24,128 bases of DNA, taken from the IMG/VR virus record IMGVR_UViG_2529293139_000010; one strand, written 5' to 3'. A program made the position numbers and the translations under genes. This document shows, piece by piece, positions 1 through 16,783 of the stretch (position 1 is the stretch's first letter; each line of letters opens with the position of its first letter). The notes under the pieces are model-generated. The model was not told where the DNA came from. It saw nothing but the letters and a program-made list of their open reading frames with translations, and made no database searches. Source of the stretch: a virus. Its lineage: Duplodnaviria > Heunggongvirae > Uroviricota > Caudoviricetes.

Positions 1-1293
1 TTATGCAGCCCTCACAATGTAGTTAAATGCGATGTTGCGTGGACGGACACCGAAATAAGAAGTAACACCATTCATTGTCAAATTTCCAGAGCCAAAAGCG
101 GTAAAACCAGAACCAGCATTAACTGCCGAATCCGCGTTTCTGACAAAGTTTTTGGGAGGTGAACCGGAGACACCAGCCGAAATATCATCAGCGTTACCGC
201 CATTGCCGTGGTGGTTAGTTATCTTTGTTTCCGCCTGCGCCGTCAACAAACCTCGTCCAGAGTCAACCCCGCGCCCGTCATCCCAGCCGCGAATAAACTC
301 ACCACGTAAATCAGGCAATTTATTTGTCGGATAAGCCTTTGCCAGTTCCGGGTATTCTTCAGCAGAAAAAGCTGCACCATTGCATTTCAGCCAGCCTGTT
401 GGCGGAGTGGCTGAAGGCCACGGAACAGGGACACCAACAGGTAATGCAGAGCCTTCTCCCAAACCAAGGTATGCGAGAAGACCAGCCACATCTTTTCCAC
501 TCAAATGAGTCAGCGTCTCATCCAGTGGTTGCTTACCTGACAGCGCATTGTTAATGGTGGTGCTGAATTTCGGGTCATTGTTAATGGCTGCGGCAATTTC
601 TTTCAGTGTATCCAGCGTGGCAGGCGCACCGTTAATCAGAGCGGTAATAGCGGCCTGAACAAACGCAGTGGTCGCAATCCGCGTGGTGTTATTTCCTGCG
701 GCAGGCGTCGGCGCTTTTGGTTCTCCGGTAAATGTCGGATTATGTTTCTGTGCATACTGGGTATGAGGATCCTGTGCGGCAATGTGGTTTCTCATCTGGT
801 CATCCACATACAGCCTTAATTCCAGGACTTCATCATCCACGTATTTACGGGTCGCCAGTACCACCGACGGGTCGATTTTCAGCGTGATGGCTTCGGTATT
901 CGAGACAACCAGAATCATGCGGATAGTCTGGGTACGACCGCTGCCTTCCTGCAACTGCGGTTTGTACGTTTCCGGGCAGTTTGCCACCGCAATGAGTACG
1001 CCTTCATCATCATAAAGCCCAATCTCACGGATCCAGAATCCGCCCTCGTTCTCAGGGATGATTTGCTCCGCAATAATCTGGCTCTGGTTGTTCGGGTCAA
1101 CACTCAGAAGATTCAGCGGCGCGATGCGTTTCTGGTTAATCAGTTTTGTCTGTGCCGGGTCTGGTGTCGGCAAGACACCATTCGCATCACCAACGGCCAT
1201 TTGCGTCAGATTCAGCTTACTGCCGAGCATCGTCGCGTTAGCCAGCCGTGCTGCGCCCTGATTAGTCAGAATGGCGTAGTATTTCACTGTCAT
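1..1293 (-). CDS. H: Tail fiber protein (P2 gpH-like); complete 430-aa ORF whose stop codon sits at window positions 1-3
   Basis: ORF track 1..1293 (-). N-terminus MTVKYYAILTNQGAARLANATMLGSKLNLTQMAVGDANGV resembles P2-family tail fiber N-terminal (baseplate-attachment) region as I recall it; position immediately downstream of gpI matches P2 synteny (V-W-J-I-H). Shorter than the 669 aa I recall for P2 H, implying a different distal receptor-binding part. Confidence 0.8.
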   Translation of the reverse strand: MTVKYYAILTNQGAARLANATMLGSKLNLTQMAVGDANGVLPTPDPAQTKLINQKRIAPLNLLSVDPNNQSQIIAEQIIPENEGGFWIREIGLYDDEGVLIAVANCPETYKPQLQEGSGRTQTIRMILVVSNTEAITLKIDPSVVLATRKYVDDEVLELRLYVDDQMRNHIAAQDPHTQYAQKHNPTFTGEPKAPTPAAGNNTTRIATTAFVQAAITALINGAPATLDTLKEIAAAINNDPKFSTTINNALSGKQPLDETLTHLSGKDVAGLLAYLGLGEGSALPVGVPVPWPSATPPTGWLKCNGAAFSAEEYPELAKAYPTNKLPDLRGEFIRGWDDGRGVDSGRGLLTAQAETKITNHHGNGGNADDISAGVSGSPPKNFVRNADSAVNAGSGFTAFGSGNLTMNGVTSYFGVRPRNIAFNYIVRAA

Positions 1294-1901
1294 GCGTTTA
1301 CTCTCAGGTTATCAATTAAATGAATGGCCGAGGCCGGGAAATAATCCCCTCCGACAATAATGGCCTCCGGGGTGTAGGGATAAACCGTCATGGCGTCACC
1401 GTGATAGCATCCCGCACCGGCAAAAATGTTGCCGGTTGTACTTAAACTGATAGCCAGTCCCGTCAGATGGCGGCTCGCCGGTTTTGCATCAGCAACGAGG
1501 CGCTCCAGCTCCTGATACATTTCTTCGGTAATACCCTGCTCAAGCACGCCAACAACGATACGGAACGTCCCCGGCTCCTCGTTGAGCTGCCACCACTCCC
1601 TTACCTCAATCAGATAGCCGAGCGGCTCCACCACACGCCGGATTGCGCCTATAGTGCCCTTATGGCAGTGAATGAAATACGCATCGCGGATAACAGCGCG
1701 TTTTGTCGCTTCCGGCCATTTATCATCCCAGCGGTCAACCGAAAATGACCACGCCAGCCACGGCAGCAGATTTGCCGGGCAGGTGTCCGGGTTCCACAGC
1801 TCACGAATACTGACCGGCGTTTTTTCAATTTCCGCACAGGCTTTTGCGGCGGCAACTTCAAGCGGTGATGAGCCGGTCGGCAGCAGTCGCGAATCACTCA
1901 T
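1290..1901 (-). CDS. I: Baseplate/tail assembly protein I (P2 gpI-like)
   Basis: ORF track 1290..1901 (-), 203 aa beginning MSDSRLLPTGSSPLEVAAAKA; 4-nt overlap with H start region and 8-nt overlap with J end indicate translational coupling; synteny J-I-H. Confidence 0.8.
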   Translation of the reverse strand: MSDSRLLPTGSSPLEVAAAKACAEIEKTPVSIRELWNPDTCPANLLPWLAWSFSVDRWDDKWPEATKRAVIRDAYFIHCHKGTIGAIRRVVEPLGYLIEVREWWQLNEEPGTFRIVVGVLEQGITEEMYQELERLVADAKPASRHLTGLAISLSTTGNIFAGAGCYHGDAMTVYPYTPEAIIVGGDYFPASAIHLIDNLRVNA

Positions 1902-2802
1902 CCGAGCCTCCGGTCACGACGCTGTATTCGGTACAGAAAGACGCCTGCGTATTGTTGAGCACGATGTCGGCCAGTGGTGCAGCCAGTTCGACACGCTGCA
2001 CGCCTTCAACATGCAAAGCGGCATAAATGGCAGACAGACGGATGTCGCGCCCCAGCCGGTGCTGTGCCGTGATGTACGCTTCCAGTTTTTTCACGGCGGC
2101 AGCGCGGATGGGTTCGCTTTCGGGGCCAGGGTAAAGGTAAAGCGTGGCGTTTATCTGGTATTCAACGATGGCGGCAGACTGCACGGTCACGCGGTCGGCC
2201 ACTGGCCTGACGTCCTCGCCATTAAGGGCGTTACGCACCACGGCCAGCAGGTCTTCGGATGCAACACCGTTATTTTCACGTGACAGCACAGAGATGGTGA
2301 CGCAGGCCGGAGACGGACTGGTGACAGAGATATCTGCGACGCGCCCGTCGGCACTGCGACCATGATACTGATAGGCTCCCACCGACCCGGCGACGCTTAA
2401 ACCTTCAAACGCCTGCTGAATACGCAGACGATAATCGGTGTCAGACTCCATCACTGCCGGTGTCGGCGGGATGGTCGAATCATCTGCCGGGGTGATAGTC
2501 AGGCGCGTGGTGTTGTAATTGGCACCAATCACATCAAGGTCATTACCGGCGGCACAGGCCAGCATCACCGCCCGTGCGGCCTCATTCACACGCTGACGCC
2601 AGATAAGCTCACGATAAGCATTTTCCTCCAGCAGCTTGACGAGAGGCTCGGATTCCAGCGTCAGGGTACGGGCGACCGCCTCCTGCTGGTCTTCCGGGTA
2701 AAGGGAAATCAGTGTCGCCTTGCGTTCGGCGAGAATGGTTTCAAAGTCCAGCTCCTCGACCACATCCGGTGCGGGTAGCTGGTTCAGGTCGATAATCGGC
2801 AT
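1894..2802 (-). CDS. J: Baseplate assembly protein J (P2 gpJ-like)
   Basis: ORF track 1894..2802 (-), 302 aa (same length I recall for P2 J); position between W and I. Confidence 0.85.
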   Translation of the reverse strand: MPIIDLNQLPAPDVVEELDFETILAERKATLISLYPEDQQEAVARTLTLESEPLVKLLEENAYRELIWRQRVNEAARAVMLACAAGNDLDVIGANYNTTRLTITPADDSTIPPTPAVMESDTDYRLRIQQAFEGLSVAGSVGAYQYHGRSADGRVADISVTSPSPACVTISVLSRENNGVASEDLLAVVRNALNGEDVRPVADRVTVQSAAIVEYQINATLYLYPGPESEPIRAAAVKKLEAYITAQHRLGRDIRLSAIYAALHVEGVQRVELAAPLADIVLNNTQASFCTEYSVVTGGSDE

Positions 2803-2806
2803 GGTT

Positions 2807-3154
2807 TCAACTCACAGGGATGGTTAACGAAAGTGGCTGGCCGGTGTCGTTGTGCTGGCCGGTTAACGTGACCGTCATTCGCCCGTCAAAACTGCGCGCC
2901 GTAGTGACGGATGACAGGGTGACGCGGGGTTCCCATTTCAGCACCGCCATGTAACAGGCGACCTTAATCTGCAACTCAAGCGCCTGGGTCTGCGGCTGGT
3001 CAATCATTGATGCCAGCAACGAGCCGTAATCACGACGCATCACCCGTGAGCCGACCGGTGTGCGCAGGATATCGCCGATACTCTGGCTGATATGCTCAAG
3101 GTCAGTGACAGTCAGGCCATCACTGCGATTCATTCCGAGATAACGTGCTGTCAT
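2807..3154 (-). CDS. W: Baseplate protein W (GPW/gp25-like)
   Basis: ORF track 2807..3154 (-), 115 aa; small GPW-type baseplate protein between V and J; 4-nt overlap with V stop. Confidence 0.85.
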   Translation of the reverse strand: MTARYLGMNRSDGLTVTDLEHISQSIGDILRTPVGSRVMRRDYGSLLASMIDQPQTQALELQIKVACYMAVLKWEPRVTLSSVTTARSFDGRMTVTLTGQHNDTGQPLSLTIPVS

Positions 3155-3786
3155 AGAGGACTCCCGGTTGTGCCGCCGCTGTCTCCTGGGTGTTTGTGGG
3201 TATGCAGTACCTTACCGTTTGATGAGAGTTCACCGCCGGTGTGTTCAATGTTGCCGCGCATCGTCCCGCCCTTCTGCACTTCCAGCGTGCCGGTAATCAG
3301 CCTGTTGGTGCAGACCACCTCCGGTGTGTCCAGGGTGACGCGGGTTGATGCTTTCACCATGACCACCGGCACCGTGGCAGTAACAGAATCAGAAGCCGTC
3401 ACGCTGACCGTTTTAATTCCGCTTACCGTGAGTGCACTGGTTTCGGGTTCATATTCAATCACCGCCCCGTCAGGGAAACGGATATGCAGGGCATCCGCCG
3501 ACGCAGACGGCGCGGGGTTATCGCCGGAATAAATCCCCGGCAGAACGAACGCCGTGTCGAGTTCACCGCCCACGGCCAGAATCAGCACCTGTTCCCCCAC
3601 GGAAGGTGCCCACCATGTGCGCGAACGTCCTGCGCGATGGGTCAGCCACTGAAGCCAGTCGGTGCACATGCCGCCGGTCTGCACACGGCAGCGACCGGCG
3701 TTAAGGTCGGTTTCGACGATAATGCCGGTGCGGATCATGTTGCGCAGTGCGCGCGCGAGTTCCTGGATATTTGCGAGTGTTTTCAT
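3151..3786 (-). CDS. V: Baseplate spike / assembly protein V (P2 gpV-like)
   Basis: ORF track 3151..3822 (-) begins at a TTG; I place the start at the internal ATG (rev-comp of 3784-3786, MKTLANIQELARAL...) giving 211 aa, the length I recall for P2 V. First gene of the V-W-J-I-H operon. Confidence 0.85.
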   Translation of the reverse strand: MKTLANIQELARALRNMIRTGIIVETDLNAGRCRVQTGGMCTDWLQWLTHRAGRSRTWWAPSVGEQVLILAVGGELDTAFVLPGIYSGDNPAPSASADALHIRFPDGAVIEYEPETSALTVSGIKTVSVTASDSVTATVPVVMVKASTRVTLDTPEVVCTNRLITGTLEVQKGGTMRGNIEHTGGELSSNGKVLHTHKHPGDSGGTTGSPL

Positions 3787-3843
3787 AAGATCTAGCATGC
3801 TGCTGAGAACTGATGAGAACAATAAAAGAGTGTTTTTCTAAGG

Positions 3844-3876
3844 TTGACACAACACTCCATTTGAAGTGAATATAAT
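3844..3876 (+). promoter_or_regulatory. Candidate sigma70-type promoter upstream of the RelA/SpoT cargo gene (TTGACA ... TATAAT)
   Basis: Exact TTGACA at 3844-3849 and exact TATAAT at 3871-3876 on the plus strand, about 45 bp upstream of the cargo start. The spacer is 21 nt, longer than the canonical 16-18, so the true -35 may differ. The same 3787-3919 interval must also hold the minus-strand late promoter for V. Confidence 0.3.
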
Positions 3877-3919
3877 GATTACTTAACTGGCAAAAAAACA
3901 TCCTCACTAATTGGAGCCA

Positions 3920-5010
3920 ATGGATACACGCATGTCAGACATTCTAATTACTTATGATGAACGGAAAGATAAATTTGAGTCCTATGCCCTTACTCTTAAA
4001 TCGTTATTAACCACGTTAATTCGCAATGAAAAAATTTCAATTCACTCACTTGAATCAAGAGTTAAAACAAAAAAAGCCTTGAAGGTAAGATTAATAAAAA
4101 GGGAAAATACAAGTCTATAGATGATATTACTGATATCGTTGGTATCAGGATCATCACACATTATGCCGATGATGTTGATAAGATAGCTGCTATAGTTGAA
4201 AAGGAGTTCACCATTGACCAAGAGAACTCTATTGATAAAAGAACCTCAATTGCGCCTGATAAATTTGGTTACCTATCACTTCATTATATAGTAACTTTAA
4301 ACTCAACCAGAACAAACTTAAAAGAATATGAAGTATATAAAAACATCAAAGCCGAATTACAAATACGATCAATCCTTCAGCATGCCTGGGCGGAGATTGA
4401 ACACGACATTGGTTATAAGTCGGCCACAGGACTGCCTAATGAAATAAGAAGATACTTTTCACGCTTAGCTGGTCTTTTAGAAATGGCCGATGATGAATTT
4501 ATTAAAATCAGAAAAAAGATTTCTGAACGGCAGAAAGAGGTTGCAAAAGAACTAGAGCAAGGAACTAGTGATTCAGTTTTAGATATTTTCACTTTGGATG
4601 AATTCTTAAACACAAGTCGAGTTATGAGTGAACTTTCAGAAGAGATAAAAGAAAAAACAGGAATCACAGTACATGGCCGATACAAGGATAAAGATTTGGG
4701 ATACCTACTAAATGGTTTAAACCTAGCCAACATAACTACAATAGAACAACTCAATCAAAAACTCTCACAAATGAAAAAGCAGATAGTAGATAGAATATTC
4801 TGCTTCGGAGAACCATTTATTAATTATTACAGAGAAACCACCATGCCAAAAGAAGCTCTTTTGAGTTATTTATGTCAAATTATCGTTGCGTTTCAAAACT
4901 CACCTTCGTTAGAATCTGAATTTAATAACAAAGCAGGTTTAAATCTGAAAAACAGAGATATCTCCGATTTTTTCTCGAATATAAGAGAAAACATAAGCAC
5001 ACAACCTTAG
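3920..5010 (+). CDS. RelA/SpoT-domain (small alarmone synthetase-like, fused toxSAS / CapRel-like) protein; reading frame interrupted by a -1 shift at an A7 tract (4069-4075)
   Basis: Track ORF 3911..4120 (+) ends RVKTKKALKVRLIKRENTSL*; shifting -1 after the A7 run gives ...KTKKSLEGKINKKGKYKSIDDITDIVGIRIITHYADD...FGYLSLHYIV...ELQIRSILQHAWAEIEHDIGYK, the signature order of RelA/SpoT synthetase motifs (G-loop D-x-x-G-x-R-I, GY-S-L-H, QIR-x-x-x-QHAWAE-x-EH), continuous with track ORF 4483..5010. The catalytic frame has a TAA at 4063-4065 and no upstream start of its own. About 160 aa of C-terminal extension follow the synthetase core, with no separate antitoxin ORF. Region is visibly AT-rich. 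Confidence 0.7.
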
Positions 5011-5039
5011 CTTTAGTTTTAACGTATTCTAACAGAAGA

Positions 5040-5065
5040 CTGCTGCCGGTAAGCACCGGCAGCAG
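5040..5065. terminator. Perfect 11-bp-stem hairpin between convergent cargo gene and S (CTGCTGCCGGT-AAGC-ACCGGCAGCAG)
   Basis: Inverted repeat read directly: 5040-5050 is the reverse complement of 5055-5065, with a 4-nt loop. No clean U-run on either side, so terminator function is inferred from position at the end of the late O..S operon and of the cargo gene. Confidence 0.35.
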
Positions 5066-5090
5066 CAATGAGGTGTCGGGAATGACACAA

Positions 5091-5543
5091 CTAACGCTCA
5101 AGGTGAGCCAGGATAATCTCTTCAATCATCTGCACATCCTCACCGGTAAAGCCGAGCAGAGGACGCGCCGGATAATCAATTTTCTTACCGTCTTTCCGGT
5201 TTTCTTCCGACAGACCGAACTGATGCACACTGGCGATTTTCGGCGACTTCCCGCCGTAAAATTCCATTGATGCCTGTTCCGGGCTGGCGCGGATATGCAA
5301 AAAACGACTGGTGATAAGTTTCGCAAACATTTTTCGCTTAACACGACCGGTCTTTTTTCTGGCGCTCTGCTGCTGGCGTGGCGCGTAGGGTGTGCCGTCC
5401 GGGGCTTTCTGTGCCATCACCCGACGCTGCTGACTCTGCCGCAGACGCTTCGCCAGCTCTGCACTCAGCCGCCGACGCCCTGACGGTGACAGCGGCTCAA
5501 TAAGTCCGGTCAGCCGGTCTTCAAAACGCTTAAACTCATTCAT
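5091..5543 (-). CDS. S: Tail completion protein S (P2 gpS-like)
   Basis: ORF track 5091..5543 (-), 150 aa (length I recall for P2 S); follows R with an 8-nt overlap. Confidence 0.85.
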   Translation of the reverse strand: MNEFKRFEDRLTGLIEPLSPSGRRRLSAELAKRLRQSQQRRVMAQKAPDGTPYAPRQQQSARKKTGRVKRKMFAKLITSRFLHIRASPEQASMEFYGGKSPKIASVHQFGLSEENRKDGKKIDYPARPLLGFTGEDVQMIEEIILAHLER

Positions 5544-6003
5544 CCCACTTGCTCACCAGTTCGCCATTGATATAAAGCTCCATCGGGCGGGTGACCGGTT
5601 CCGGCGGCGGGGGTTCCGGGATATTCTTCACATGCAGCGCACCGTCAACCTCACTGACCAGCGTGCGCTCGGTCAGCATCAGGCTGATGCTGATATCAAA
5701 GCTGCTGTCATTGTTGATGTCTGCATAAAACGTGAAGCCCTTTTTCTGGCCTTCGTCGGTGGTCATGATGTCGGGCTGATTTTCCCGCAACCACGCCAGC
5801 ACCGGCACGATGAGCAGGTCAAAATCACCGGTAAAGTCGGTCACAATGACATTGAGCGTGTAACGCTTTTCGAATGACAGCGACGCAGCCAGTGTGGAGG
5901 CAATGCTCCCGTTATCCACGAATATCCGCAGCATCTCGGGGCTTGTTTTCAGCACCGTGACGGCATCAGTCAGCGCCCTGCGCAGGCTGTCGGGTTTGAG
6001 CAT
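5536..6003 (-). CDS. R: Tail completion protein R (P2 gpR-like)
   Basis: ORF track 5536..6003 (-), 155 aa; sits between the lysis cassette and S as in P2. Confidence 0.85.
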   Translation of the reverse strand: MLKPDSLRRALTDAVTVLKTSPEMLRIFVDNGSIASTLAASLSFEKRYTLNVIVTDFTGDFDLLIVPVLAWLRENQPDIMTTDEGQKKGFTFYADINNDSSFDISISLMLTERTLVSEVDGALHVKNIPEPPPPEPVTRPMELYINGELVSKWDE

Positions 6004-6256
6004 CGTTTTCGTCCTGACAGTGTTTAATCATTTTTACCTGGCTGGCACAGCGTGCCAGCGCGTTCTCAAGCTGCCGGATATCAGCACTTAAATCGCCGTT
6101 CGTCTCCGGGTCACTGCCCGGCATCGGGCAAAGGCTCACTTTCGGGCAGGCGTTGTGGACAATCACTGGCGTCGGTGCAGGCCGGACGCTGGTGCAACCG
6201 GCGCACAGCATCAGGCAGGTCAGCGCCATACCAGCGGCGAAAATCCTCGTTTTCAT
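5966..6256 (-). CDS. lysC: LysC, outer-membrane spanin lipoprotein (Rz1-like), embedded out of frame in lysB
   Basis: Track ORF 5966..6295 (-); start placed at the internal Met giving MKTRIFAAGMALTCLMLCAGC..., a signal peptide ending in a lipobox-like L-C-A-G-C; Pro-rich mature part; embedded in the 3' half of lysB as in P2. Confidence 0.6.
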   Translation of the reverse strand: MKTRIFAAGMALTCLMLCAGCTSVRPAPTPVIVHNACPKVSLCPMPGSDPETNGDLSADIRQLENALARCASQVKMIKHCQDENDAQTRQPAQGAD

Positions 6257-6536
6257 TAAGTAACCTCGTGATGGTTTTCTCGCGCAGTGCTTCACGCTTC
6301 GCGGCGTTTTCCAGCGCCTGACGCAGTGTCACCTGCGCCAGCTCGTTTTTGTCTGCCCTGGTGAGGGCAACATGAAGCTGATTTTTCAGCATGGTGATGG
6401 TCGTCTGCTGTTCACTGGCGACGCTGTTCGCCCTGTCCAGCGAGGCGCGCAGGCTGGCATTTTTGTGTTTCACCAGAAACAGACCGGCCACCGCCAGCGA
6501 TAACAACACGACCAGCACAATCATCAGCTTTGACAT
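6111..6536 (-). CDS. lysB: LysB, inner-membrane spanin (Rz-like)
   Basis: ORF track 6111..6536 (-), 141 aa with N-terminal TM helix (MSKLMIVLVVLLSLAVAGLFLV) followed by a charged helical periplasmic domain; position after lysA. Confidence 0.75.
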   Translation of the reverse strand: MSKLMIVLVVLLSLAVAGLFLVKHKNASLRASLDRANSVASEQQTTITMLKNQLHVALTRADKNELAQVTLRQALENAAKREALREKTITRLLNENEDFRRWYGADLPDAVRRLHQRPACTDASDCPQRLPESEPLPDAGQ

Positions 6537-6949
6537 GGTTCCCGTCCCTCAAGACGCTGACGACAGGCTTTACGTATCAGCCGGAAAAACAGCGACGCCA
6601 CAAGATAAATCAGCGCGGTAAAAATCCACCCGGCAGCGACCAGCGAGATAAACGTCGCCACCATCACCACCAGAGCCGCTGCCCGCCTGCGCCACGGCAC
6701 CGGCTGCAAAAACAGCGACGTGACAATCTTCACGGCCAGCGATTCCGGCGGCAGCTCCCGCCCGTAGCGTTCAAGTACATACTCAGTGGCATACACGCCG
6801 ACACCACCGGCAACCATACAGATAACCGTCTCCAGAATCGCCCAGGTGGCGACAAAATTGACGACCACGCTCTGCGGGTAAATCAGGGACAGTGCCAGCA
6901 TCAGCGCCAGCGACACGTTCAGCATCAGTGAAATGAATAATTTCTTCAT
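6524..6949 (-). CDS. lysA: LysA, lysis-timing membrane protein
   Basis: ORF track 6524..6949 (-), 141 aa, multiple hydrophobic helices; position between endolysin K and lysB. Confidence 0.7.
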   Translation of the reverse strand: MKKLFISLMLNVSLALMLALSLIYPQSVVVNFVATWAILETVICMVAGGVGVYATEYVLERYGRELPPESLAVKIVTSLFLQPVPWRRRAAALVVMVATFISLVAAGWIFTALIYLVASLFFRLIRKACRQRLEGREPCQS

Positions 6950-6963
6950 GGTGTTTACTCCGT

Positions 6964-7461
6964 TTAAGCCGGTACGCCGCCAGCGGTACGCCAGACGGTG
7001 ACCAGTTTTTCCAGTGAATGCTCACGCTGACCGTAACCGGCACCCGGCAGGGACGCCCAGATATTGCGACAGCGTGAAATGGCGCGCTCAATGCGTCCCG
7101 CCCGGATGTCATCCAGTGCACCGCGTTCGCGGATCAACTGAATGGCGAGTCTGTCCTGCGACAACGGACTGAAATCCGGCAGGGCAAGCTGTTTGCGGTA
7201 GTGCGGCCAGAACAGGTAAAGCTGCTGATAGCGACCGGAGGCCGTGGATTTTTCACCGCGACGGTTAAACACCTTCGCCGGTCGGCCATGCGCGAACGGG
7301 TGGTCACTGTAGTCGGTGAAAATTTCCGGCTTTCCGTCCAGTCCGGTGACTATCACGTCATAGCCCCGGTTTTTCGTCAGCGGATGATTCGCCGTCCCTT
7401 CGGACACCGCCAGCATGTCGAGAAAGGCGGCGATATTCTGGTGCGTGTTAATTACCGGCAT
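6964..7461 (-). CDS. K: Endolysin (P2 gpK-like phage lysozyme)
   Basis: ORF track 6964..7461 (-), 165 aa; lysis-cassette position directly after holin Y with a 1-nt overlap. Confidence 0.85.
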   Translation of the reverse strand: MPVINTHQNIAAFLDMLAVSEGTANHPLTKNRGYDVIVTGLDGKPEIFTDYSDHPFAHGRPAKVFNRRGEKSTASGRYQQLYLFWPHYRKQLALPDFSPLSQDRLAIQLIRERGALDDIRAGRIERAISRCRNIWASLPGAGYGQREHSLEKLVTVWRTAGGVPA

Positions 7462-7742
7462 TACGGTTTCCCCCTGCCCTTAAAGCGGCGCTGAATGGCA
7501 ATCTCAATCACCTGATAACCGGCGATACCCAGCATGGAGCCGATGCCGCACACCGCAGGCAGTGACAGGTCAGGAAACTGCACCAGAACAACACCGGCAA
7601 CCATCGAGACAAAACCACCGAGCAACATGCGCCCGATAAACAGACGCGGGGTGATGGGTTCACCACCGGCAAGCACCTTGCCGACAACAATCAGCACCCC
7701 AATCATGAAAAGCGACAGGACGCTTTTTTCTTCTGCTGTCAT
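7461..7742 (-). CDS. Y: Holin (P2 gpY-like)
   Basis: ORF track 7461..7742 (-), 93 aa, hydrophobic TM segments and a basic C-terminus (RRFKGRGKP), typical of holins; immediately upstream of K. Confidence 0.8.
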   Translation of the reverse strand: MTAEEKSVLSLFMIGVLIVVGKVLAGGEPITPRLFIGRMLLGGFVSMVAGVVLVQFPDLSLPAVCGIGSMLGIAGYQVIEIAIQRRFKGRGKP

Positions 7743-7745
7743 GCG

Positions 7746-7949
7746 TTACTCCCACAGATTGACAGTTTCAGCCACGGGCGCGGTCTGAACGTCGGGCAGT
7801 TCGACGGCGGTGCCATGTGGCAGCACCGCCCCCAGTTCAGCCAGTCCCGAATTTGCGGCGAGCACGGTCTCAACCACGCCCTCAGTGCGCCCGTAATACC
7901 GGACACAAATGGCGTCGAGCGTGTCGCCCTGTAGCGCAAAGGTCTTCAT
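7746..7949 (-). CDS. X: Tail protein X (LysM-like, P2 gpX-like)
   Basis: Track ORF 7746..8018 (-); start placed at internal Met MKTFALQGDTLDAICVRYYG..., giving 67 aa and avoiding overlap with the L coding region. Confidence 0.75.
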   Translation of the reverse strand: MKTFALQGDTLDAICVRYYGRTEGVVETVLAANSGLAELGAVLPHGTAVELPDVQTAPVAETVNLWE

Positions 7950-8458
7950 CAGATTTGGCTCACGATGCAGCGCGGCTTGTCCTGGATGCGCGCCACTGCC
8001 CAGCGCATATCCCGCCACAGCTCATCAATGGTGCTGTCAATGCTGTCGGCCTTCTTGTCGCCTTTCGCACTGGCATCCACGCCGCGATAACGCTCATAAA
8101 GCGACGCGGTCGCCATCGCACACACGGCGCGCTCGTAGTAAAAAACTTTGATGCTTTCACCGTCGATGTCGTCCGCCGGAACGTCCGCCAGACGCGTAAA
8201 ACCGGCGGCAATTTTCTGTTCGCGGTACTCGTACAGCTCCGCATTCGTTTCAGCCATGCCTGACTTGATGGCCTCACGCAGACGGGCGGGGGCGACGGTC
8301 TGCTCAAGGCGCATACGTTCCCGGACGCGCTTCGGGTCGATATCGGGAAAAAAGAACGTGTTTTTAATCACCGGCTCGTCGCCTGCCGGTTGCGGGATGA
8401 CCACCGTACCCTCACCGGACACGGGAGCCTCCTTTCGCGGAATAATCAGCGTCATCAT
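7949..8458 (-). CDS. L: Head completion protein (P2 gpL-like)
   Basis: Track ORF 7949..8518 (-); start placed at the tandem ATG ATG (rev-comp of 8453-8458, MMTLIIPRKEAPV...) preceded by GAGG, giving 169 aa. Confidence 0.8.
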   Translation of the reverse strand: MMTLIIPRKEAPVSGEGTVVIPQPAGDEPVIKNTFFFPDIDPKRVRERMRLEQTVAPARLREAIKSGMAETNAELYEYREQKIAAGFTRLADVPADDIDGESIKVFYYERAVCAMATASLYERYRGVDASAKGDKKADSIDSTIDELWRDMRWAVARIQDKPRCIVSQI

Positions 8459-8557
8459 GACTACCTCTGAAAAGTCGGGCGGTGGACGCCGGTGCAGTGT
8501 CAGGTGATTCACCCTCACTGACCGGCGTGCCGCCCTGGCGCGGGGCGCATTCGGTTG

Positions 8558-9301
8558 TTAACTGGCTTTCTTTTTCGGGCGTCCACGTTTTGCCGGTGTC
8601 GCACTCCGGGTCTTACGCGGGGCGCGGGTGGCCGCTTTTGGCTGTGGCTCCGGCTTCGGTTTCAGCTCCCGCTCCAGTCGTTCAATCTCTTTTTTGACGC
8701 CTGCCTGACAGTCGAGCTGTGTCGCACGTTGCAGGTGCGCCAGCGCACCTGCGGCATCACCACCGTCACGCAGAAACAGACCGGTGATTTTGTGCAGCTT
8801 TGCGCGCACTTCATCAGGCATGTCAGCCGTGGCGGTCAGTTCAAGGGTGTCCGTCAGCAGGCGCGTATCCACAGACTCACCGGCAGCGTGGGCACGCATG
8901 GCCGCAAGCGCCACCTCCTCGGTGAACATGTACGGCGGGGTGCGACGGTGTTTACCCGGCATGGTCAGACCGTACTTCAGGGCATAACGGGCAATCTCCA
9001 GCGCACCGGCAATATCGCCGGTATCCAGACGCCACAGCATGACCGTCATCAGAATGTCATCCTGTGCACCTTTGCCCTGCTCCAGCACGCCGTTCACCCA
9101 CGGCAACCAGAACGGCAGCAGTTCGCGCTTTTTCGCGGCCTTCAGCTCTTTTGAATAAATCGCTTTCAGTGTGCGCTGGTCTGCGGCGAGCTTAACCAGC
9201 ATCTGCTCATAGACAGTTGCATGTCGCAGCGGGGCGGCTTCCCGCTGCGCGGTCATCGCTGCCGAGACCCGCATCATGTGGCGCTGTGCGGGACTCGTCA
9301 T
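8558..9301 (-). CDS. M: Terminase small (endonuclease) subunit (P2 gpM-like)
   Basis: ORF track 8558..9301 (-), 247 aa, basic Lys/Arg/Pro-rich C-terminus; position after capsid gene N. Confidence 0.85.
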   Translation of the reverse strand: MTSPAQRHMMRVSAAMTAQREAAPLRHATVYEQMLVKLAADQRTLKAIYSKELKAAKKRELLPFWLPWVNGVLEQGKGAQDDILMTVMLWRLDTGDIAGALEIARYALKYGLTMPGKHRRTPPYMFTEEVALAAMRAHAAGESVDTRLLTDTLELTATADMPDEVRAKLHKITGLFLRDGGDAAGALAHLQRATQLDCQAGVKKEIERLERELKPKPEPQPKAATRAPRKTRSATPAKRGRPKKKAS

Positions 9302-9304
9302 CGG

Positions 9305-10378
9305 TTACGCTCCCGACTCTGCGGTCGCTTTAGCCGGTGTGGAGAAATCACCGACCTTAATTTTTTCCACCAGACAACCGGCGGCGTAGTCTTCCACCAC
9401 GTAATCAATGTTCATTGACTCGTAGTTCTCCACGCGGTCGAGTTTCGGGTTTTCCTCAATCACGCGGCGATGGCTGTCATCCATGTAGTAGATGGACAGG
9501 TTTTCCAGCTTCGTGATGAGCATCGCATCCGCCGGGAAGTACGGGACGCGTACCGCCGGCAGGTTACCGATGCGTTTCTGGCTGATGATGACGTCAGCGG
9601 CCAGCATTTCGCTGTTGTCCTGCTCCTTGTTGACGATGGGGAAATACTTGTCCGCCAGTAGCTGACGCCCCACAATCACCACAAGGTCAGGGTCTTCCTG
9701 ATACCACGGCTCAATCAGGTTGTTGGTCGCATCCATCACCAGTGCATCGAGGCTGACATAATCACCGCCCTTACCCACGCGGATGACCTCAGAGGTCGTG
9801 TGACCTTCCTCGTCAGTAACCTTGCTCATCACGCGCGCCGGGGCTTCATTGCGGTATTTCTGCAGCCAGCCGACCGCCACATCCTGCAGCATCTGGTTAC
9901 TGCTGCGGTCAGAGGTTTCGGCACGCCTCACGCCGTTAAAACCGGCCATGATGAAATCAAGGGACTGGCGTTTGATAATGGCGTTACGGACACGGAGCTG
10001 GAAATCCTGATAACGCGCCCACAGGTCAAGTGTTTTGTAGCGGATATAAAAATCGAAGTTAATCTGGTCGCATTCGTACTTGTTTGACGCCAGCTTCGAG
10101 AAGTCCTTCGGCTGACGCTCGGTGCCACCGGCGGTGTCGGTGGTGCTGGCGATGGAGCCGGTGACACCGATGCCAATTTTTTCCCCTTTCATTTCGCTGA
10201 CCGGCACAATGTTGATGCGGGTCAGAAAGTCAGAGGACTCCTGCATGGTGTTCATCAGGGTCTGGGTGACCGACGGTTCAACGGTAAATTTTTTCGACAC
10301 ATCACCGGCGTCGATGCCGTTCAGTTCGGCAACACGGGACAGGTAGGCATTAAATTTAAAGCGGGTTTCCTGGCGCAT
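9305..10378 (-). CDS. N: Major capsid protein (P2 gpN-like)
   Basis: ORF track 9305..10378 (-), 357 aa (length I recall for P2 N); O-N-M order. Confidence 0.9.
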   Translation of the reverse strand: MRQETRFKFNAYLSRVAELNGIDAGDVSKKFTVEPSVTQTLMNTMQESSDFLTRINIVPVSEMKGEKIGIGVTGSIASTTDTAGGTERQPKDFSKLASNKYECDQINFDFYIRYKTLDLWARYQDFQLRVRNAIIKRQSLDFIMAGFNGVRRAETSDRSSNQMLQDVAVGWLQKYRNEAPARVMSKVTDEEGHTTSEVIRVGKGGDYVSLDALVMDATNNLIEPWYQEDPDLVVIVGRQLLADKYFPIVNKEQDNSEMLAADVIISQKRIGNLPAVRVPYFPADAMLITKLENLSIYYMDDSHRRVIEENPKLDRVENYESMNIDYVVEDYAAGCLVEKIKVGDFSTPAKATAESGA

Positions 10379-10436
10379 AGTTTTTCCTGAAATTAAGGGT
10401 TAATCGTGAAGGTTTTCCCGGACTGACTGACGCCGG

Positions 10437-11291
10437 TCAGCAGTTCGTCATCAGGGCGTCACCGCCACCACCGGTGGCCTTGCTGCGGCGCTGCTGGGTC
10501 AGACTTTCGGTGTGGTCGAGACTGTTTTTCAGGCGGGTGAATGCCTGGCTGGTTTCATCCGCCCTGTCAGTCACCTCCTGCTTAAGTGCAGAAAAGGCGG
10601 TTTCCATCTCAGCGAGGCGCTGCTCAGTGGCGCTCAGTTTTTCCTGCACATGTTCAGCAACAGCGGTCACCGCTTCATGCACGTCATTCAGACGGGCATC
10701 ATCGCTGGCCTGTTTGCGGCCAAAAATGGACTTCACCTTTTCGGTCAGGGCGGTGAACACGGTTTCAGGCAGGTCTTCAAATTCCAGCTCAACAGGCGTT
10801 GCCACTGAAATCAGGTTTTCAGGGCTTAATTTGAAGCGATTCAGGGGGTTGTGTTTTGCCGTGCGGCAGAATTCCAGGTATTCCGTGCCGAGGCTTGCCG
10901 GGTCATCGGTGACGGCCAGCCCCACCAGATAACATTTGCCGGTGTTGGCAAAGTTCGGCTGAATTTCCATTGAGGTGTAGACCTTCTGCGCGGCCTTGTT
11001 CATCGCGATAAGGTCATCGGTCGGGGTGATTTTCGCAAACAGCGCCCATTTGCCTTTCAGCGCCGAATCGTCATCAATCTTTTCGGCCTTCAGTTCGGCC
11101 ACATCGCCATAACGCTTAAAAATACCGTCAGGCAGGATGCCGCGCAGATGTTCCAGGTTAATGCGGCAACCATAGACACGCGGGTCAAAGGTTTCGGCCA
11201 TTTCCTGAATATCCTGCGCACTGATGACACGCCCGTCACAGGTGTCACCCTCAACGCCGATACGAAAGAATTTTGATGCTTTTTTTGCCAT
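10437..11291 (-). CDS. O: Capsid scaffolding protein / protease (P2 gpO-like)
   Basis: Track ORF 10437..11357 (-); start placed at internal Met MAKKASKFFRIGVEGDTCDGR..., matching the P2 O N-terminus as I recall it and giving 284 aa. Confidence 0.85.
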   Translation of the reverse strand: MAKKASKFFRIGVEGDTCDGRVISAQDIQEMAETFDPRVYGCRINLEHLRGILPDGIFKRYGDVAELKAEKIDDDSALKGKWALFAKITPTDDLIAMNKAAQKVYTSMEIQPNFANTGKCYLVGLAVTDDPASLGTEYLEFCRTAKHNPLNRFKLSPENLISVATPVELEFEDLPETVFTALTEKVKSIFGRKQASDDARLNDVHEAVTAVAEHVQEKLSATEQRLAEMETAFSALKQEVTDRADETSQAFTRLKNSLDHTESLTQQRRSKATGGGGDALMTNC

Positions 11292-11464
11292 TGTCAGGAG
11301 TCCTGAATAGTGATTAGAGGAGTCACATGTCGGCATCAGTTTCCCGACGATGCGCATCCTCCGCCATCAGTCCCGGATGGCTTATCACTGACACAACAGC
11401 ACCTTAGCGAATCGCGGGGCGCGACTCAGTAGCCTTGCCGTGTATTCATCACGGCGAGGTATTC
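11292..11464. promoter_or_regulatory. Divergent late-promoter region between O (minus) and P-Q (plus)
   Basis: Intergenic between divergently oriented O and P; in P2 this interval carries the Ogr-dependent late promoters. A partial dyad TGTCGG-N10-CCGACG is visible around 11330-11352. Individual promoter elements not resolved. Confidence 0.4.
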
Positions 11465-13237
11465 ATGACCATCACCACAGACACCACTCTTTTACACGAC
11501 CCGCGTCGTCAGGCGGCGCTGCTGTACTGGCAGGGGTTTTCCGTGCCGCAGATTGCCGCCATGTTGCAGATGAAACGCCCGACGGTGCAGAGCTGGAAAC
11601 AGCGCGACGGCTGGGACAGCGTTGCCCCCATCAGCCGTGTCGAAATGAGTCTGGAAGCGCGACTGACCCAGCTCATCATCAAACCGCAGAAAACCGGCGG
11701 TGACTTCAAGGAAATTGACCTGCTCGGACGCCAGATTGAACGACTGGCACGGGTCAACCGCTACAGCCAGACCGGCAACGAGGCAGACCTTAATCCGAAC
11801 GTCGCTAACCGCAACAAAGGCGGGCGTCGCAAACCGAAAAAGAATTTTTTCAGTGACGAGGCCATCGAAAAGCTGGAGCAGATTTTCTTTGAGCAGTCTT
11901 TCGAATATCAGTTGCACTGGTATCGCGCCGGGCTTGAGCACCGCATCCGCGATATCCTGAAATCCCGCCAGATTGGCGCGACGTTTTATTTTTCCCGCGA
12001 GGCGCTGCTGCGCGCCCTGAAAACCGGTCATAACCAGATTTTTCTGTCGGCCAGTAAAACGCAGGCGTATGTGTTCCGTGAATACATCATCGCCTTTGCC
12101 CGGCTGGTTGACGTTGACCTGACCGGTGACCCGATTGTCCTGGGCAATAACGGCGCAAAACTGATTTTTCTCGGCACCAACTCCAACACCGCACAGAGCC
12201 ATAACGGCGACCTGTACGTCGACGAGATTTTCTGGATCCCGAATTTTCAGGTACTGCGTAAGGTGGCATCAGGTATGGCCTCACAGAGTCACCTGCGCTC
12301 GACCTATTTCTCCACCCCGTCCACGCTGGCGCACGACGCCTACCCGTTCTGGTCGGGTGAACTGTTCAACCGGGGACGCGCCAGCGCCGCCGAACGCGTG
12401 GAAATCGACGTCAGTCATAACGCCCTTGCCGGTGGGCTTCTCTGTGCGGACGGCCAGTGGCGGCAGATTGTCACCATTGAGGACGCCCTGAAAGGTGGCT
12501 GCACGTTGTTCGACATTGAGCAGCTCAAACGCGAAAACAGCGCCGACGATTTTAAAAACCTGTTCATGTGTGAATTTGTTGACGACAAGGCGTCAGTGTT
12601 CCCGTTCGAGGAGCTGCAACGCTGCATGGTCGACACGCTGGAAGAATGGGAAGACTATGCGCCGTTTGCCACCAATCCGTTCGGCTCCCGCCCGGTATGG
12701 ATTGGTTACGACCCGTCACACCGTGGCGACAGCGCCGGATGCGTGGTGCTGGCACCGCCGGTGGTGGCCGGTGGCAAATTCAGAATACTTGAGCGCCATC
12801 AGTGGAAAGGCATGGACTTTGCCACCCAGGCGGAATCCATCCGCAAACTCACCGAAAAATACAACGTCGAATACATCGGTATTGATGCCACCGGCCTCGG
12901 TGTCGGCGTGTTCCAGCTCGTGCGCTCGTTCTATCCCGCCGCGCGCGACATCCGCTACACGCCGGAAATGAAAACCGCAATGGTGCTCAAGGCAAAAGAC
13001 GTTATCCGCCGTGGCTGTCTGGAATATGACGTCAGCGCCACCGACATCACCAGCTCGTTTATGGCTATCCGCAAGACCATGACCAGCAGCGGACGCAGCG
13101 CCACCTATGAGGCCAGCCGCAGCGAGGAAGCCAGCCACGCCGACCTCGCCTGGGCGACCATGCACGCCCTGTTAAATGAGCCACTCACCGCCGGTATCAG
13201 CACCCCGCTGACATCCACCATTCTGGAGTTTTACTGA
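11465..13237 (+). CDS. P: Terminase large (ATPase) subunit (P2 gpP-like)
   Basis: Track ORF 11435..13237 (+); start placed at the ATG at 11465 (MTITTDTTLLHD...), giving 590 aa as I recall for P2 P; stop overlaps the Q start (TGATG). Confidence 0.9.
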   Translation: MTITTDTTLLHDPRRQAALLYWQGFSVPQIAAMLQMKRPTVQSWKQRDGWDSVAPISRVEMSLEARLTQLIIKPQKTGGDFKEIDLLGRQIERLARVNRYSQTGNEADLNPNVANRNKGGRRKPKKNFFSDEAIEKLEQIFFEQSFEYQLHWYRAGLEHRIRDILKSRQIGATFYFSREALLRALKTGHNQIFLSASKTQAYVFREYIIAFARLVDVDLTGDPIVLGNNGAKLIFLGTNSNTAQSHNGDLYVDEIFWIPNFQVLRKVASGMASQSHLRSTYFSTPSTLAHDAYPFWSGELFNRGRASAAERVEIDVSHNALAGGLLCADGQWRQIVTIEDALKGGCTLFDIEQLKRENSADDFKNLFMCEFVDDKASVFPFEELQRCMVDTLEEWEDYAPFATNPFGSRPVWIGYDPSHRGDSAGCVVLAPPVVAGGKFRILERHQWKGMDFATQAESIRKLTEKYNVEYIGIDATGLGVGVFQLVRSFYPAARDIRYTPEMKTAMVLKAKDVIRRGCLEYDVSATDITSSFMAIRKTMTSSGRSATYEASRSEEASHADLAWATMHALLNEPLTAGISTPLTSTILEFY

Positions 13238-14271
13238 TGAGCAAGAAAAAAGGGAAAACATCGCGACCTGCGGCAAAAACAATGACCGCCAGCGCCCCGA
13301 AAATGGAGGCATTCACCTTTGGTGAGCCGGTGCCGGTACTCGACCGCCGTGACATTCTGGATTACGTCGAGTGCATCAGTAACGGCAGATGGTATGAGCC
13401 ACCGGTCAGCTTTACCGGTCTGGCAAAAAGCCTGCGTGCTGCCGTGCATCACAGCTCACCGATTTACGTCAAACGTAATATTCTGGCCTCGACATTTATC
13501 CCGCATCCGTGGCTTTCCCAGCAGGATTTCAGCCGCTTTGTGCTGGATTTTCTGGTGTTCGGTAATGCGTTTCTGGAAAAGCGATACAGCACCACCGGTA
13601 AGGTCATCAGACTGGAAACCTCACCGGCAAAATATACCCGCCGTGGTGTGGAGGAGGATGTTTACTGGTGGGTGCCGTCCTTCAACGAGCCGACACCTTT
13701 CACGCCCGGCTCCGTGTTTCATCTGCTGGAGCCGGATATTAATCAGGAGCTGTACGGCCTGCCGGAATATCTCAGCGCCCTTAACTCTGCCTGGCTGAAT
13801 GAGTCGGCCACGCTGTTCCGCCGCAAGTATTACGAAAACGGCGCACATGCCGGATACATCATGTACGTCACTGATGCCGTGCAGGATCGCAACGATATCG
13901 AAATGCTCCGCGAAAACATGGTGAAGTCGAAAGGCCGCAACAACTTTAAAAATCTGTTTCTCTATGCCCCACAGGGGAAAGCCGACGGCATTAAAATTAT
14001 CCCGCTCAGTGAAGTCGCAACGAAGGACGATTTTTTTAATATCAAAAAAGCCAGCGCCGCTGACCTGCTGGACGCGCACCGCATCCCCTTTCAGTTGATG
14101 GGCGGCAAGCCGGAGAACGTCGGGTCGCTGGGTGATATTGAGAAAGTGGCAAAGGTCTTTGTCCGCAATGAGCTTATCCCGCTACAGGACAGGATCCGCG
14201 AGATAAACGGCTGGCTCGGTCAGGAGGTCATCCGCTTTAAAAACTACTCACTAGATACTTGCGATACCTAA
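13237..14271 (+). CDS. Q: Portal protein (P2 gpQ-like)
   Basis: ORF track 13237..14271 (+), 344 aa (length I recall for P2 Q); coupled to P. Confidence 0.9.
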   Translation: MSKKKGKTSRPAAKTMTASAPKMEAFTFGEPVPVLDRRDILDYVECISNGRWYEPPVSFTGLAKSLRAAVHHSSPIYVKRNILASTFIPHPWLSQQDFSRFVLDFLVFGNAFLEKRYSTTGKVIRLETSPAKYTRRGVEEDVYWWVPSFNEPTPFTPGSVFHLLEPDINQELYGLPEYLSALNSAWLNESATLFRRKYYENGAHAGYIMYVTDAVQDRNDIEMLRENMVKSKGRNNFKNLFLYAPQGKADGIKIIPLSEVATKDDFFNIKKASAADLLDAHRIPFQLMGGKPENVGSLGDIEKVAKVFVRNELIPLQDRIREINGWLGQEVIRFKNYSLDTCDT

Positions 14272-14315
14272 TATATAAACTCGGATATGCCATTCATAAT
14301 GGCACGACACCTTAA

Positions 14316-14348
14316 AACGGCACTATAAGCAACGACCATAGTGCCGTT
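14316..14348. terminator. Perfect 11-bp-stem hairpin between convergent Q and cargo gene 2 (AACGGCACTAT-N11-ATAGTGCCGTT)
   Basis: 14316-14326 is the exact reverse complement of 14338-14348. Sits between the Q stop (14271) and the cargo operon stop (14363). No strong U-run, so terminator role is inferred. Confidence 0.35.
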
Positions 14349-14362
14349 CAATAACCAAGAAA

Positions 14363-15454
14363 TCATCCCATTTCAGCCAACAACCGTCCTATATTTGAGC
14401 GCAAGATTTCCTTTTTACTCTCATCAAAAACTCCTTGAATAGTGGATAACAAAACTTCAACCAGTTTATCTCGCCTACTATCCTCAGCAAAAATTTTTAT
14501 TATATTTGAAAATTCAGATTTAAATTCACGATGAATGAAAAGAAGCACATAACTAATATTATTATAGTGTTCAATATCAATTTCTGAATTCTCAATAGAT
14601 TCCTCATTGACCTTTCTTTTTAAAAGCGATGCAAGCCTAATAACATCTCCTTGCCTTGCTTGATTATCTCCAATGATAATAGCCAAAGTATCAATCAAAC
14701 TACTGGAACTTTCTTTAAAGAAATATTCTTCTGATATAGTTGCTAAAACACCATCCTTTAACGATTCCGATGATATTTTTAAACCCACCAAGGAAAGACG
14801 TTCAATTGCTCTTTGAGGGGTATAAACCAACCATTCAGCATGTCTCCTTTCATTTCTTACTATGCTTCTCAATAGATATTGAGATCTATCAAGTGTTATT
14901 AGCATGGGAGTACTGAAGTAACCATTGGAATCAAGATGTAGGGTTTCATCACTCAAAGTTGCAGCACATATAACATCATTTTCTATGGCTCGAGCGGGAC
15001 GTGAAGAATTCAAATCCCTTTTAAGTTTTTGCTTTATTTTAAATACAAAGTCTTGTGACACCGAGTCTTTATTATCAATTACAACAATATTTGCTGACGC
15101 TAGTAAATTATGAATGCATTGCGCAAATGTGTCATGCTTATACCCCGCATAAATATCATCTTTATCCAACCCTAGAAAAGCATAAGTAAAATCGTAAAAA
15201 TCTGTACGTTTAGGCTGTTTGTTTTTCCACCGCATATAAACATTAAAGTATACATTTTTCGACTCACCAAGTTGACTAATTAAATCTTCAGTTACAAACT
15301 GACTTAATTTTTCAGCTTCAGAGTAGTGCCTTGCAGTTTCTTCAAAATGTTCATTAGAAACTCTCAGATGTTTATTTTTGAGGGGATTTATGCACTCTCT
15401 CAGTAAATTTATATTTTTAATCGACTTATCAAAAAGCTCAAAATCTCCAAACAT
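14363..15454 (-). CDS. Cargo gene 2 of a two-gene AT-rich operon; hypothetical protein (about 363 aa), no recognisable motifs
   Basis: Track ORF 14363..15466 (-) uses a TTG; the first ATG is the rev-comp of 15452-15454, 8 nt after the stop of the upstream gene. Very AT-rich, Lys/Asn/Ile/Glu-rich. No Shine-Dalgarno seen, suggesting translational coupling. Confidence 0.7.
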   Translation of the reverse strand: MFGDFELFDKSIKNINLLRECINPLKNKHLRVSNEHFEETARHYSEAEKLSQFVTEDLISQLGESKNVYFNVYMRWKNKQPKRTDFYDFTYAFLGLDKDDIYAGYKHDTFAQCIHNLLASANIVVIDNKDSVSQDFVFKIKQKLKRDLNSSRPARAIENDVICAATLSDETLHLDSNGYFSTPMLITLDRSQYLLRSIVRNERRHAEWLVYTPQRAIERLSLVGLKISSESLKDGVLATISEEYFFKESSSSLIDTLAIIIGDNQARQGDVIRLASLLKRKVNEESIENSEIDIEHYNNISYVLLFIHREFKSEFSNIIKIFAEDSRRDKLVEVLLSTIQGVFDESKKEILRSNIGRLLAEMG

Positions 15455-15462
15455 AAGAGTTA

Positions 15463-16623: not shown

Positions 16624-16783
16624 AACCAATCCTTTTAATGTCTTTACTCTTATATTTTAAGATAATTTTCAACTTATCTGCATTACATGAGACAATAGCA
16701 TAGGACTGTAGGATTTGCTCTGCCCTTCAATCATTTTGTGTCTTAGCTTATGTCACAAATATTTCAAGAACATTTTGCGCGCA

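Follow-up and report, generated by a model that had tools for sequence, protein, structure and literature searches.

The window analysed here is a 24,128-nt stretch of Caudoviricetes DNA (IMG/VR record IMGVR_UViG_2529293139_000010), the first 15,010 bases of which (1-15010) are 100% identical to the Escherichia coli E1520 scaffold GL871772.1 (GCA_000190815.1). According to the open reading frames and to Pfam searches on the identical E1520 locus, the genes surrounding the disrupted gene described below form a P2-like prophage set. To its left, on the minus strand, lie gene W (2807-3154) and gene V (3151-3822), the latter encoding the P2 baseplate spike and identified by Pfam Phage_base_V and Phage_spike matches and by the orthologous RefSeq loci. 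The gene V ORF as listed opens with TTG, and its RefSeq orthologues are annotated with a length of 211 aa. To the right, also on the minus strand, are the tail completion gene S (5091-5543; Pfam Phage_tail_S and RefSeq annotation) and gene R (5536-6003). Beyond R follow lysis, head and terminase genes, each of full length.

A RelA/SpoT-type gene sits between V and S, on the strand opposite to both. Its translation start region (3913-3934, plus strand) contains a GGAG motif (3913-3916), an ATG at 3920 and a second in-frame ATG at 3932; intact RefSeq orthologues begin at the position equivalent to 3932. Further upstream, perfect TTGACA (3845-3850) and TATAAT (3871-3876) hexamers on the plus strand, separated by a 20-nt spacer, make up a possible promoter of the gene's own (3845-3876). 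The consensus promoter scan covered spacers of 16-18 nt only and left this pair unscored. Between the RelA/SpoT-type gene and S, a 12-bp G+C-rich hairpin (5039-5066) resembles a minus-strand terminator and is probably bidirectional. The opposite-strand position at the V/S junction, combined with a strong 3' hairpin, is a layout typical of phage cargo. A distant DNA search of phage GenBank records gave no match to the RelA/SpoT-type gene.

The reading frame of this gene is interrupted at a run of seven adenines (A7, 4069-4075), preceded by C at 4068 and followed by G at 4076. In the zero frame, translation proceeds as ...SRVKTKKALKVRLIKRENTSL and is terminated by TAG at 4118-4120. The resulting 5' fragment (3932-4120, plus strand) comprises 62 aa when counted from ATG 3932 and 66 aa from ATG 3920, and ends in an out-of-frame tail of 15 residues starting with alanine (ALKVRLIKRENTSL...). 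The -1 frame contains TAA at 4063-4065; from 4066 onwards it stays open until a stop codon at 5008-5010. This remainder of the gene (4066-5010, plus strand) is otherwise intact and holds nearly the whole synthetase domain together with a helical C-terminal domain of ~150 aa. The earliest ATG, GTG or TTG in the -1 frame is ATG 4483, which opens the sole conventional ORF left there (4483-5010, plus strand). This ORF encodes 175 aa, made up of the last part of the catalytic region and the C-terminal domain, and appears in the E1520 annotation as hypothetical protein ERCG_01932. No Shine-Dalgarno sequence was evident upstream of ATG 4483 when the sequence was read.

Insertion of one A into the tract yields ...RVKTKKSLEGKINKKGKYKSIDDITDIVGIRII..., the same sequence as in intact orthologue proteins, and the continuous repaired protein matches them across the junction ...RVKTKKSLEGKINKK... 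as well. Alignment with the orthologues contained a single indel, located exactly in the A7 tract. The preliminary description of this DNA had placed the A7 run, the ATG at 3920, the TAG and TAA stops and a -1 frame without a start codon of its own at these same positions, and all of them were confirmed on the sequence. The frames and the orthologue alignment agreed with it on the position and the sign (-1) of the shift, and the repaired junction that it predicted is identical in intact orthologues. Runs of seven adenines are not over-represented in the window, with 11 observed against 9.6 expected. The significance of the run at 4069-4075 is its location, not its existence.

The repaired protein matched the Pfam family RelA_SpoT (PF04607) over residues 42-165 with a score of 76.9 bits (cut-off 27) and an E-value of 1.8e-21, which upholds the RelA/SpoT identity first proposed from the letters. 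Its best PDB matches, in sequence as well as in fold, were the small alarmone synthetases RelQ, YjbM and RelP; sequence E-values for RelQ/YjbM were ~1e-15, and the TM-score normalised to the target was ~0.77. Among 32 homologues, R43, K45, S49, D68, G71, R73 and G113 are invariant, as are Y114, S116, H118, E142, Q144, R146 and H151. We take these columns to be the catalytic and substrate-binding motifs RxKxxxS, DxxD-GxR, GYxSxH and ExQxR...H of the PF04607 family. The helical C-terminal extension of ~150 aa was confidently modelled, and the mean pLDDT of the whole model was 91.2.

The functional assignment of the protein beyond the synthetase fold is more tentative. The PADLOC defence candidate PDC-S33 gave a weak match (59 bits, profile positions 48-237 of 349), and this match and the position of the gene as prophage cargo hint that it is possibly a defence gene. 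The literature on PDC-S33 and on a RelA/SpoT-type gene in P2-hotspot papers yielded nothing usable. In fused toxSAS/CapRel proteins, the N-terminal domain is toxic alone, the C-terminal domain neutralises it and the protein protects against phage (PMC9712102). No sequence match to CapRel was found at E <= 0.01, and Foldseek superposition on the CapRel structures 7ZTB and 9ERV was full-length (~350 columns) but poor, with TM-scores of 0.36-0.40, an rmsd of 18-19 Å and 15-17% identity. Filing the protein as CapRel was rejected as unproven on these two results.

The locus was found in 14 of the 5,426 complete E. coli genomes. In 13 of the 14 it carries one extra base and one intact annotated CDS; nine of these 13 loci were fetched and read, and every one has a run of eight adenines (A8) and a 359-aa ORF from the ATG equivalent to 3932. 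A flank-pattern scan of IMG/VR, metagenomes and GTDB representatives, which accepted any tract length, returned A8 in seven of seven contigs. At the level of the whole family, more than 4,500 homologues were recorded in groups that include Enterobacteria, Pseudomonas and Bacillus; each full-length homologue listed is a single ORF of ~355-375 aa. The preliminary description had proposed a comparison of orthologous loci, which was the right test, and had reasoned that orthologues with an uninterrupted frame and no homopolymer would point to a mutation or an error. The first part of this expectation was borne out and the second was not: the orthologues are intact, and the homopolymer is present in them as A8. 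Orthologues that are in frame and yet carry A8 point to a mutation, or an error, at a hotspot.

The tract lies within the invariant R43-x-K45-x-x-x-S49 motif at the start of the catalytic domain. In the A8 allele it reads ACA AAA AAA AGC (T-K-K-S; codons 46-47), and the family residue is Arg where the E. coli protein has Lys46. The nearest homologues, with 68-72% identity, likewise sit between V and S, in other P2-like prophages; their codons are ACA AGA AAA AGC, ACG AGA AAA AGC or ACG AGG AAA AGC, with no long A run. Because these homologues carry AGA or AGG within the run, A8 was probably created in the E. coli lineage by a single G-to-A change that turned AGA (Arg) into AAA (Lys). The tract at 4069-4075 (plus strand) is marked as a site of one-base contraction by the tract census, by the codon comparison and by being the window's sole indel across 6.5-7.2 kb against five relatives. 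Read in this way, A7 is the derived state, a one-base contraction of A8.

The contraction could in principle belong to the record and not to the bacterium: the E1520 chromosome would truly carry A8, and the draft would have under-called the homopolymer by one base. Homopolymer under-calling is a classic artefact on some sequencing platforms. The draft with which the window is identical (GCA_000190815.1) is an older one, assembled to scaffold level, and the E1520 haplotype, defined by 4167C together with A7, was seen in E1520 only. Some A7 contigs in public assemblies do contain such noise, since two of them (L012 and L018) bear extra homopolymer indels. However, the presence of a single indel and of ~20 flanking phage genes, all of full length, argues against an error-prone assembly. 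Moreover, many independent assemblies show A7 as well, among them one complete genome and several metagenome assemblies of short-read style, for example L016, the JGI contig L019 and L022, whose contig name is of the k141_ type. Judging from these assemblies, A7 certainly exists in nature, and an under-called A8 in the E1520 record is considered unlikely, while deserving some weight. Nothing usable on the E1520 sequencing method was found in the literature. The window's other A8 run (16338-16345, within the ORF at 15463-16629) lies in a gene present in one other complete genome only, and is uninformative as a noise control.

A7 is also present in one complete genome, that of Res13-Lact-PEB08-01 (CP062865), and RefSeq calls this equivalent allele a pseudogene. 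The CP062865 haplotype is divergent, with private SNPs 18 nt before and 10 nt after the tract. Diagnostic trans-frame peptides were looked up as exact matches across ~15 billion public proteins. This census recovered A7 peptides on at least 12 contigs, the A9 peptide on one contig, the 175-aa fragment on 21 contigs and intact forms on ~397 contigs, the last figure counting listed members only. The exact peptide of the 5' fragment was also found in other public assemblies. Overall, disrupted copies account for ~5% of public loci, and ~95% are 'on'. Contigs L012 and L018 were not counted as independent real A7 events, as their further homopolymer indels are possibly read noise; the remaining A7 contigs are clean. 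The accession numbers of some other Logan runs are close to one another, and these runs may come from a single platform.

When placed in haplotypes by sequence identity, the 175-aa fragments fell on four backgrounds, namely the E6474/E1520, S88, SC477 and Res13 types. The A7 contig L021 showed no differences from S88, an A8 carrier, over 1900 nt upstream (0/1900) and 565 nt downstream (0/565) of the tract, versus 55 differences in 1900 nt upstream when compared with the window. Contigs L020 and L022, both A7, matched the A8 carrier SC477 on both flanks. Since the prophages that bear A7 are in other respects the same as A8 carriers, parsimony favours separate contractions in at least four prophage lineages. 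Recombination was rejected as the main source of A7 on several backgrounds, both flanks matching lineage-specific A8 prophages. Three of the four A7 backgrounds are identical across 3836-4407, and spread of A7 by a very short gene-conversion tract within this interval could mimic independent contraction. Inactivation had been one of four options offered in the preliminary description, next to programmed slippage, phase variation and sequencing error, and it is favoured by this independent recurrence of A7 in several lineages.

Contig L013 carries a different null allele, a 41-nt deletion (3926-3966) that removes ATG 3932 and apparently lies between short GATA repeats. The A7 alleles, for their part, are all otherwise intact, which suggests that the losses are recent; their intact remainder fits a reversible switch equally well.

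Programmed slippage had also been suggested at the outset. Under such recoding, the gene would normally be expressed by -1 frameshifting on A_AAA_AAA, or by transcriptional slippage, giving short and full-length products in a set ratio. The zero frame of the A7 allele, AC[A AAA AAA] GCC, does contain an in-phase X_XXY_YYZ heptamer on which a -1 shift would give the wild-type protein; this phase is automatic, because the heptamer results from deletion of one A from ACA AAA AAA AGC. In the nearly identical context of the Gateway attB1 site (C-AAA-AAA-GCA), 25-60% -1 shifting was reported in E. coli under T7 overexpression (PMC1851650). However, the two-frame arrangement is not conserved, given that 13 of 14 complete genomes are intact, all seven scanned contigs have A8 and the homologues are single ORFs. 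The tract itself is not conserved either, being absent from the nearest homologues. Folding of the RNA at 4076-4150 gave a minimum free energy of -10.7 kcal/mol versus -9.66 ± 2.74 kcal/mol for shuffled sequences (z = -0.38), indicating no stimulatory structure, and the only stable hairpin downstream of the tract begins ~55 nt away. No GGAGG-like Shine-Dalgarno element was read in the 20 nt upstream of the tract.

Published rates also weigh against recoding. In E. coli, a heptamer that lacks stimulators shifts only 2-10 times as often as the background of ~0.055% (PMC4066793). E. coli RNA polymerase is reported to require longer A runs for slippage, at least 7 T being needed and more in the case of A (PMC6260861); the run here is A7. 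Programmed recoding as the normal mode of expression was rejected because the orthologues are in frame with A8 in a family of single ORFs, the tract is unconserved and no stimulatory RNA structure is predicted downstream; we regard it as extremely improbable.

A functional role for the tract could also take the form of a phase-variable contingency locus, in which A8 would be kept because slippage among A8, A7 and A9 is reversible and silences or restores, within populations, a prophage defence gene that is costly or toxic. Tract lengths of A7 (four backgrounds), A8 (the majority) and A9 (one contig) all occur naturally, A7 would have at least four origins, and reversion of the otherwise intact A7 alleles would restore function. 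The gene is, moreover, cargo at a prophage variable site and has a defence-candidate match. Against this, the tract is missing in the closest homologues and derives from one conservative codon change, with no sign of selection for mutability: Arg (AGA/AGG) breaks the run in the homologues of 68-72% identity, and R is the residue found here in the wider family. As contingency tracts go, A8 is also short. The gene is 'on' at about 95% of loci, haplotype comparison revealed no A8 nested within an A7 lineage, and a non-reversible null, the 41-nt deletion, occurs too, as plain loss predicts. A switch maintained by selection is accordingly considered improbable. The same low credence is given to a variant in which A8 works as a two-level dial, A7 and A9 forming a reversible low state from which A7 leaks wild-type protein through the -1 slip, so that populations would hedge between defence and cost.

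The explanation that we consider probable is that the tract is a slippage hotspot that gives rise to null or leaky alleles of a defence-like gene which is dispensable and possibly costly. One A would be lost from the A8 run, at codons 46-47 of the 359-aa ORF, when strands slip as the DNA is replicated. E. coli genes are depleted in the heptamer AAAAAAA, and slippage and high indel rates have been given as the cause (PMC4066793). The contraction would cut off nearly the whole enzyme and leave a peptide of 62-66 aa. Comparison of the structural model with the motif columns places only the first helix and strand in the zero-frame product, with the catalytic residues all downstream. The -1 frame contains no start codon for an N-terminally trimmed enzyme, and the 175-aa C-terminal fragment would at best be poorly initiated. 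Reinitiation at ATG 4121-4123, directly after the stop, was considered as well and rejected: this codon is in the zero frame, not in the synthetase frame, and does not rescue the enzyme.

The A7 allele is predicted to be a null or a strong hypomorph, because nearly the whole enzyme is cut off and only the poorly initiated C-terminal ORF remains. Some residual expression would be expected, as a -1 ribosomal slip on the in-phase A_AAA_AAA would restore the T-K-K-S wild-type protein; from the published rates, this leak is expected to amount to a percent or less. Such losses may be tolerated, and perhaps favoured, the gene being accessory and possibly costly. Because the same contraction appears to have arisen independently in at least four lineages, the A7 tract would thus be the main loss-of-function hotspot of the RelA/SpoT-type gene.

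The event itself is of an ordinary kind, a slippage-hotspot frameshift that repeatedly knocks out or turns down an accessory prophage gene. For annotation, 3932-5010 is best treated as a single gene with a frameshift. It is a pseudogene or hypomorph of the 359-aa 'GTP pyrophosphokinase' that P2-like prophages carry between V and S, and should be entered neither as a recoding site nor as two small genes. The locus offers a small, clean example of how a conservative Arg-to-Lys codon change makes a mutational weak point that dominates the loss-of-function spectrum. In a recent survey, only ~2% of P2-like prophage pseudogenes resembled defence genes, and the recurrent breakage described here is somewhat notable against that figure (PMC13586616). 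Should the protein turn out to be a toxic enzyme of defence, the natural A7/A8 pairs in otherwise identical prophages would serve as isogenic controls for its cost and benefit.

Several known systems share features with this locus. At the protein level, the repaired product resembles RelQ and RelP in its N-terminal RelA/SpoT synthetase fold with conserved catalytic motifs. Like CapRel of phage SJ46, it is encoded in a prophage by one ORF of ~360 aa and has a helical extension at its C-terminus, and it has in common with fused toxSAS proteins the architecture of a synthetase joined to a C-terminal domain (PMC9712102). It differs from CapRel in lacking a sequence match and in its poor full-length superposition.

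At the level of the tract, tandem lysine codons form an in-phase slippery heptamer (A_AAA_AAG or A_AAA_AAA), as in E. coli dnaX, in transposases of the IS1 and IS3 families and in the accidental attB1 site. As at attB1, a -1 slip at the A7 tract would join the two frames and give a serine codon, here AGC (PMC1851650). Unlike programmed sites, the A7 tract has orthologues in frame and is accompanied neither by a stimulatory hairpin or pseudoknot nor by a Shine-Dalgarno-like element upstream, and no role is evident for the short zero-frame product of the A7 allele. With phase-variable contingency loci that have coding poly-A or poly-G tracts, as in Neisseria, Haemophilus and Campylobacter, it shares a coding homopolymer, natural length polymorphism and an accessory, conflict-related gene; in contrast to them, the tract is short, unconserved among homologues and overwhelmingly 'on'. 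The locus is also like homopolymer frameshift pseudogenes of bacterial accessory genes, with no essential difference: the product is cut short when a mononucleotide run within the coding sequence changes in length by one base, and the change recurs independently in related strains. Two features are particular to it in this comparison: the run was, as the codons suggest, recently made by one codon change, and the mutant run is itself an in-phase slippery heptamer.

The junction between the P2 baseplate spike gene V and the tail completion gene S was occupied by RelA/SpoT-type genes in other P2-like prophages as well. Five Logan contigs (L023-L027) carried homologues only 68-72% identical to the gene of the window, and these matched both its exact V/S position and its orientation. 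This pattern suggests that the V/S junction is a stable site for cargo, where the gene family is retained while its sequence diverges.

An independent null allele of the RelA/SpoT-type gene was observed in L013 (ENA ERZ28598340 scaffold_6216). Its tract was A8, and it carried a 41-nt deletion, equivalent to window positions 3926-3966, which removed the ATG at 3932 and threw the ATG at 3920 out of frame. The deletion is apparently bounded by short GATA repeats.

The 5' untranslated region of the gene contains a second A7 run (window 3892-3898), located 21 nt upstream of the ATG at 3920. The length of this run did not vary across all clean loci examined. Several one-base homopolymer indels were found in the public contigs L012 (SRR24673192) and L018 (SRR30949855): from A7 to A8 in the 5' untranslated region, from G5 to G4 in tail genes, and from A6 to A5 within the gene. 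Homopolymer lengths are unreliable in some assemblies of the large collections, and such assemblies should not be taken as evidence of tract variation. In L020 (DRR317783), a prophage carrying the A7 tract, one base was missing inside tail gene S, at the equivalent of approximately window position 5391, and the gene was called at only 79 aa. This loss reflects either a decaying prophage or a read error.

Just past the portal gene, the minus strand encodes two adjacent ORFs of 367 aa (window 14363-15466) and 388 aa (window 15463-16629), neither of which had a Pfam match. A 400-nt stretch of the latter was found, besides the window, in only one complete E. coli genome, that of strain 1218KP. The 14363-16629 region also contains an intact A8 run (16338-16345). 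The ORF pair appears to be uncommon, functionally uncharacterised cargo located at a P2 variable site.

Window positions 1-467, comprising the end of the tail-fibre gene, have an inverted copy with 99.8% identity at positions 4468-4935 of the E. coli E1520 locus (L011), just upstream of the window. In the stretch L011 3807-4935, this copy adjoins a resolvase/invertase gene (L011 3807-4400); it also adjoins a tail-fibre 'Collar' fragment. This arrangement looks like an invertible tail-fibre segment, so that the prophage with the RelA/SpoT-type gene would also carry a true switch based on DNA inversion.
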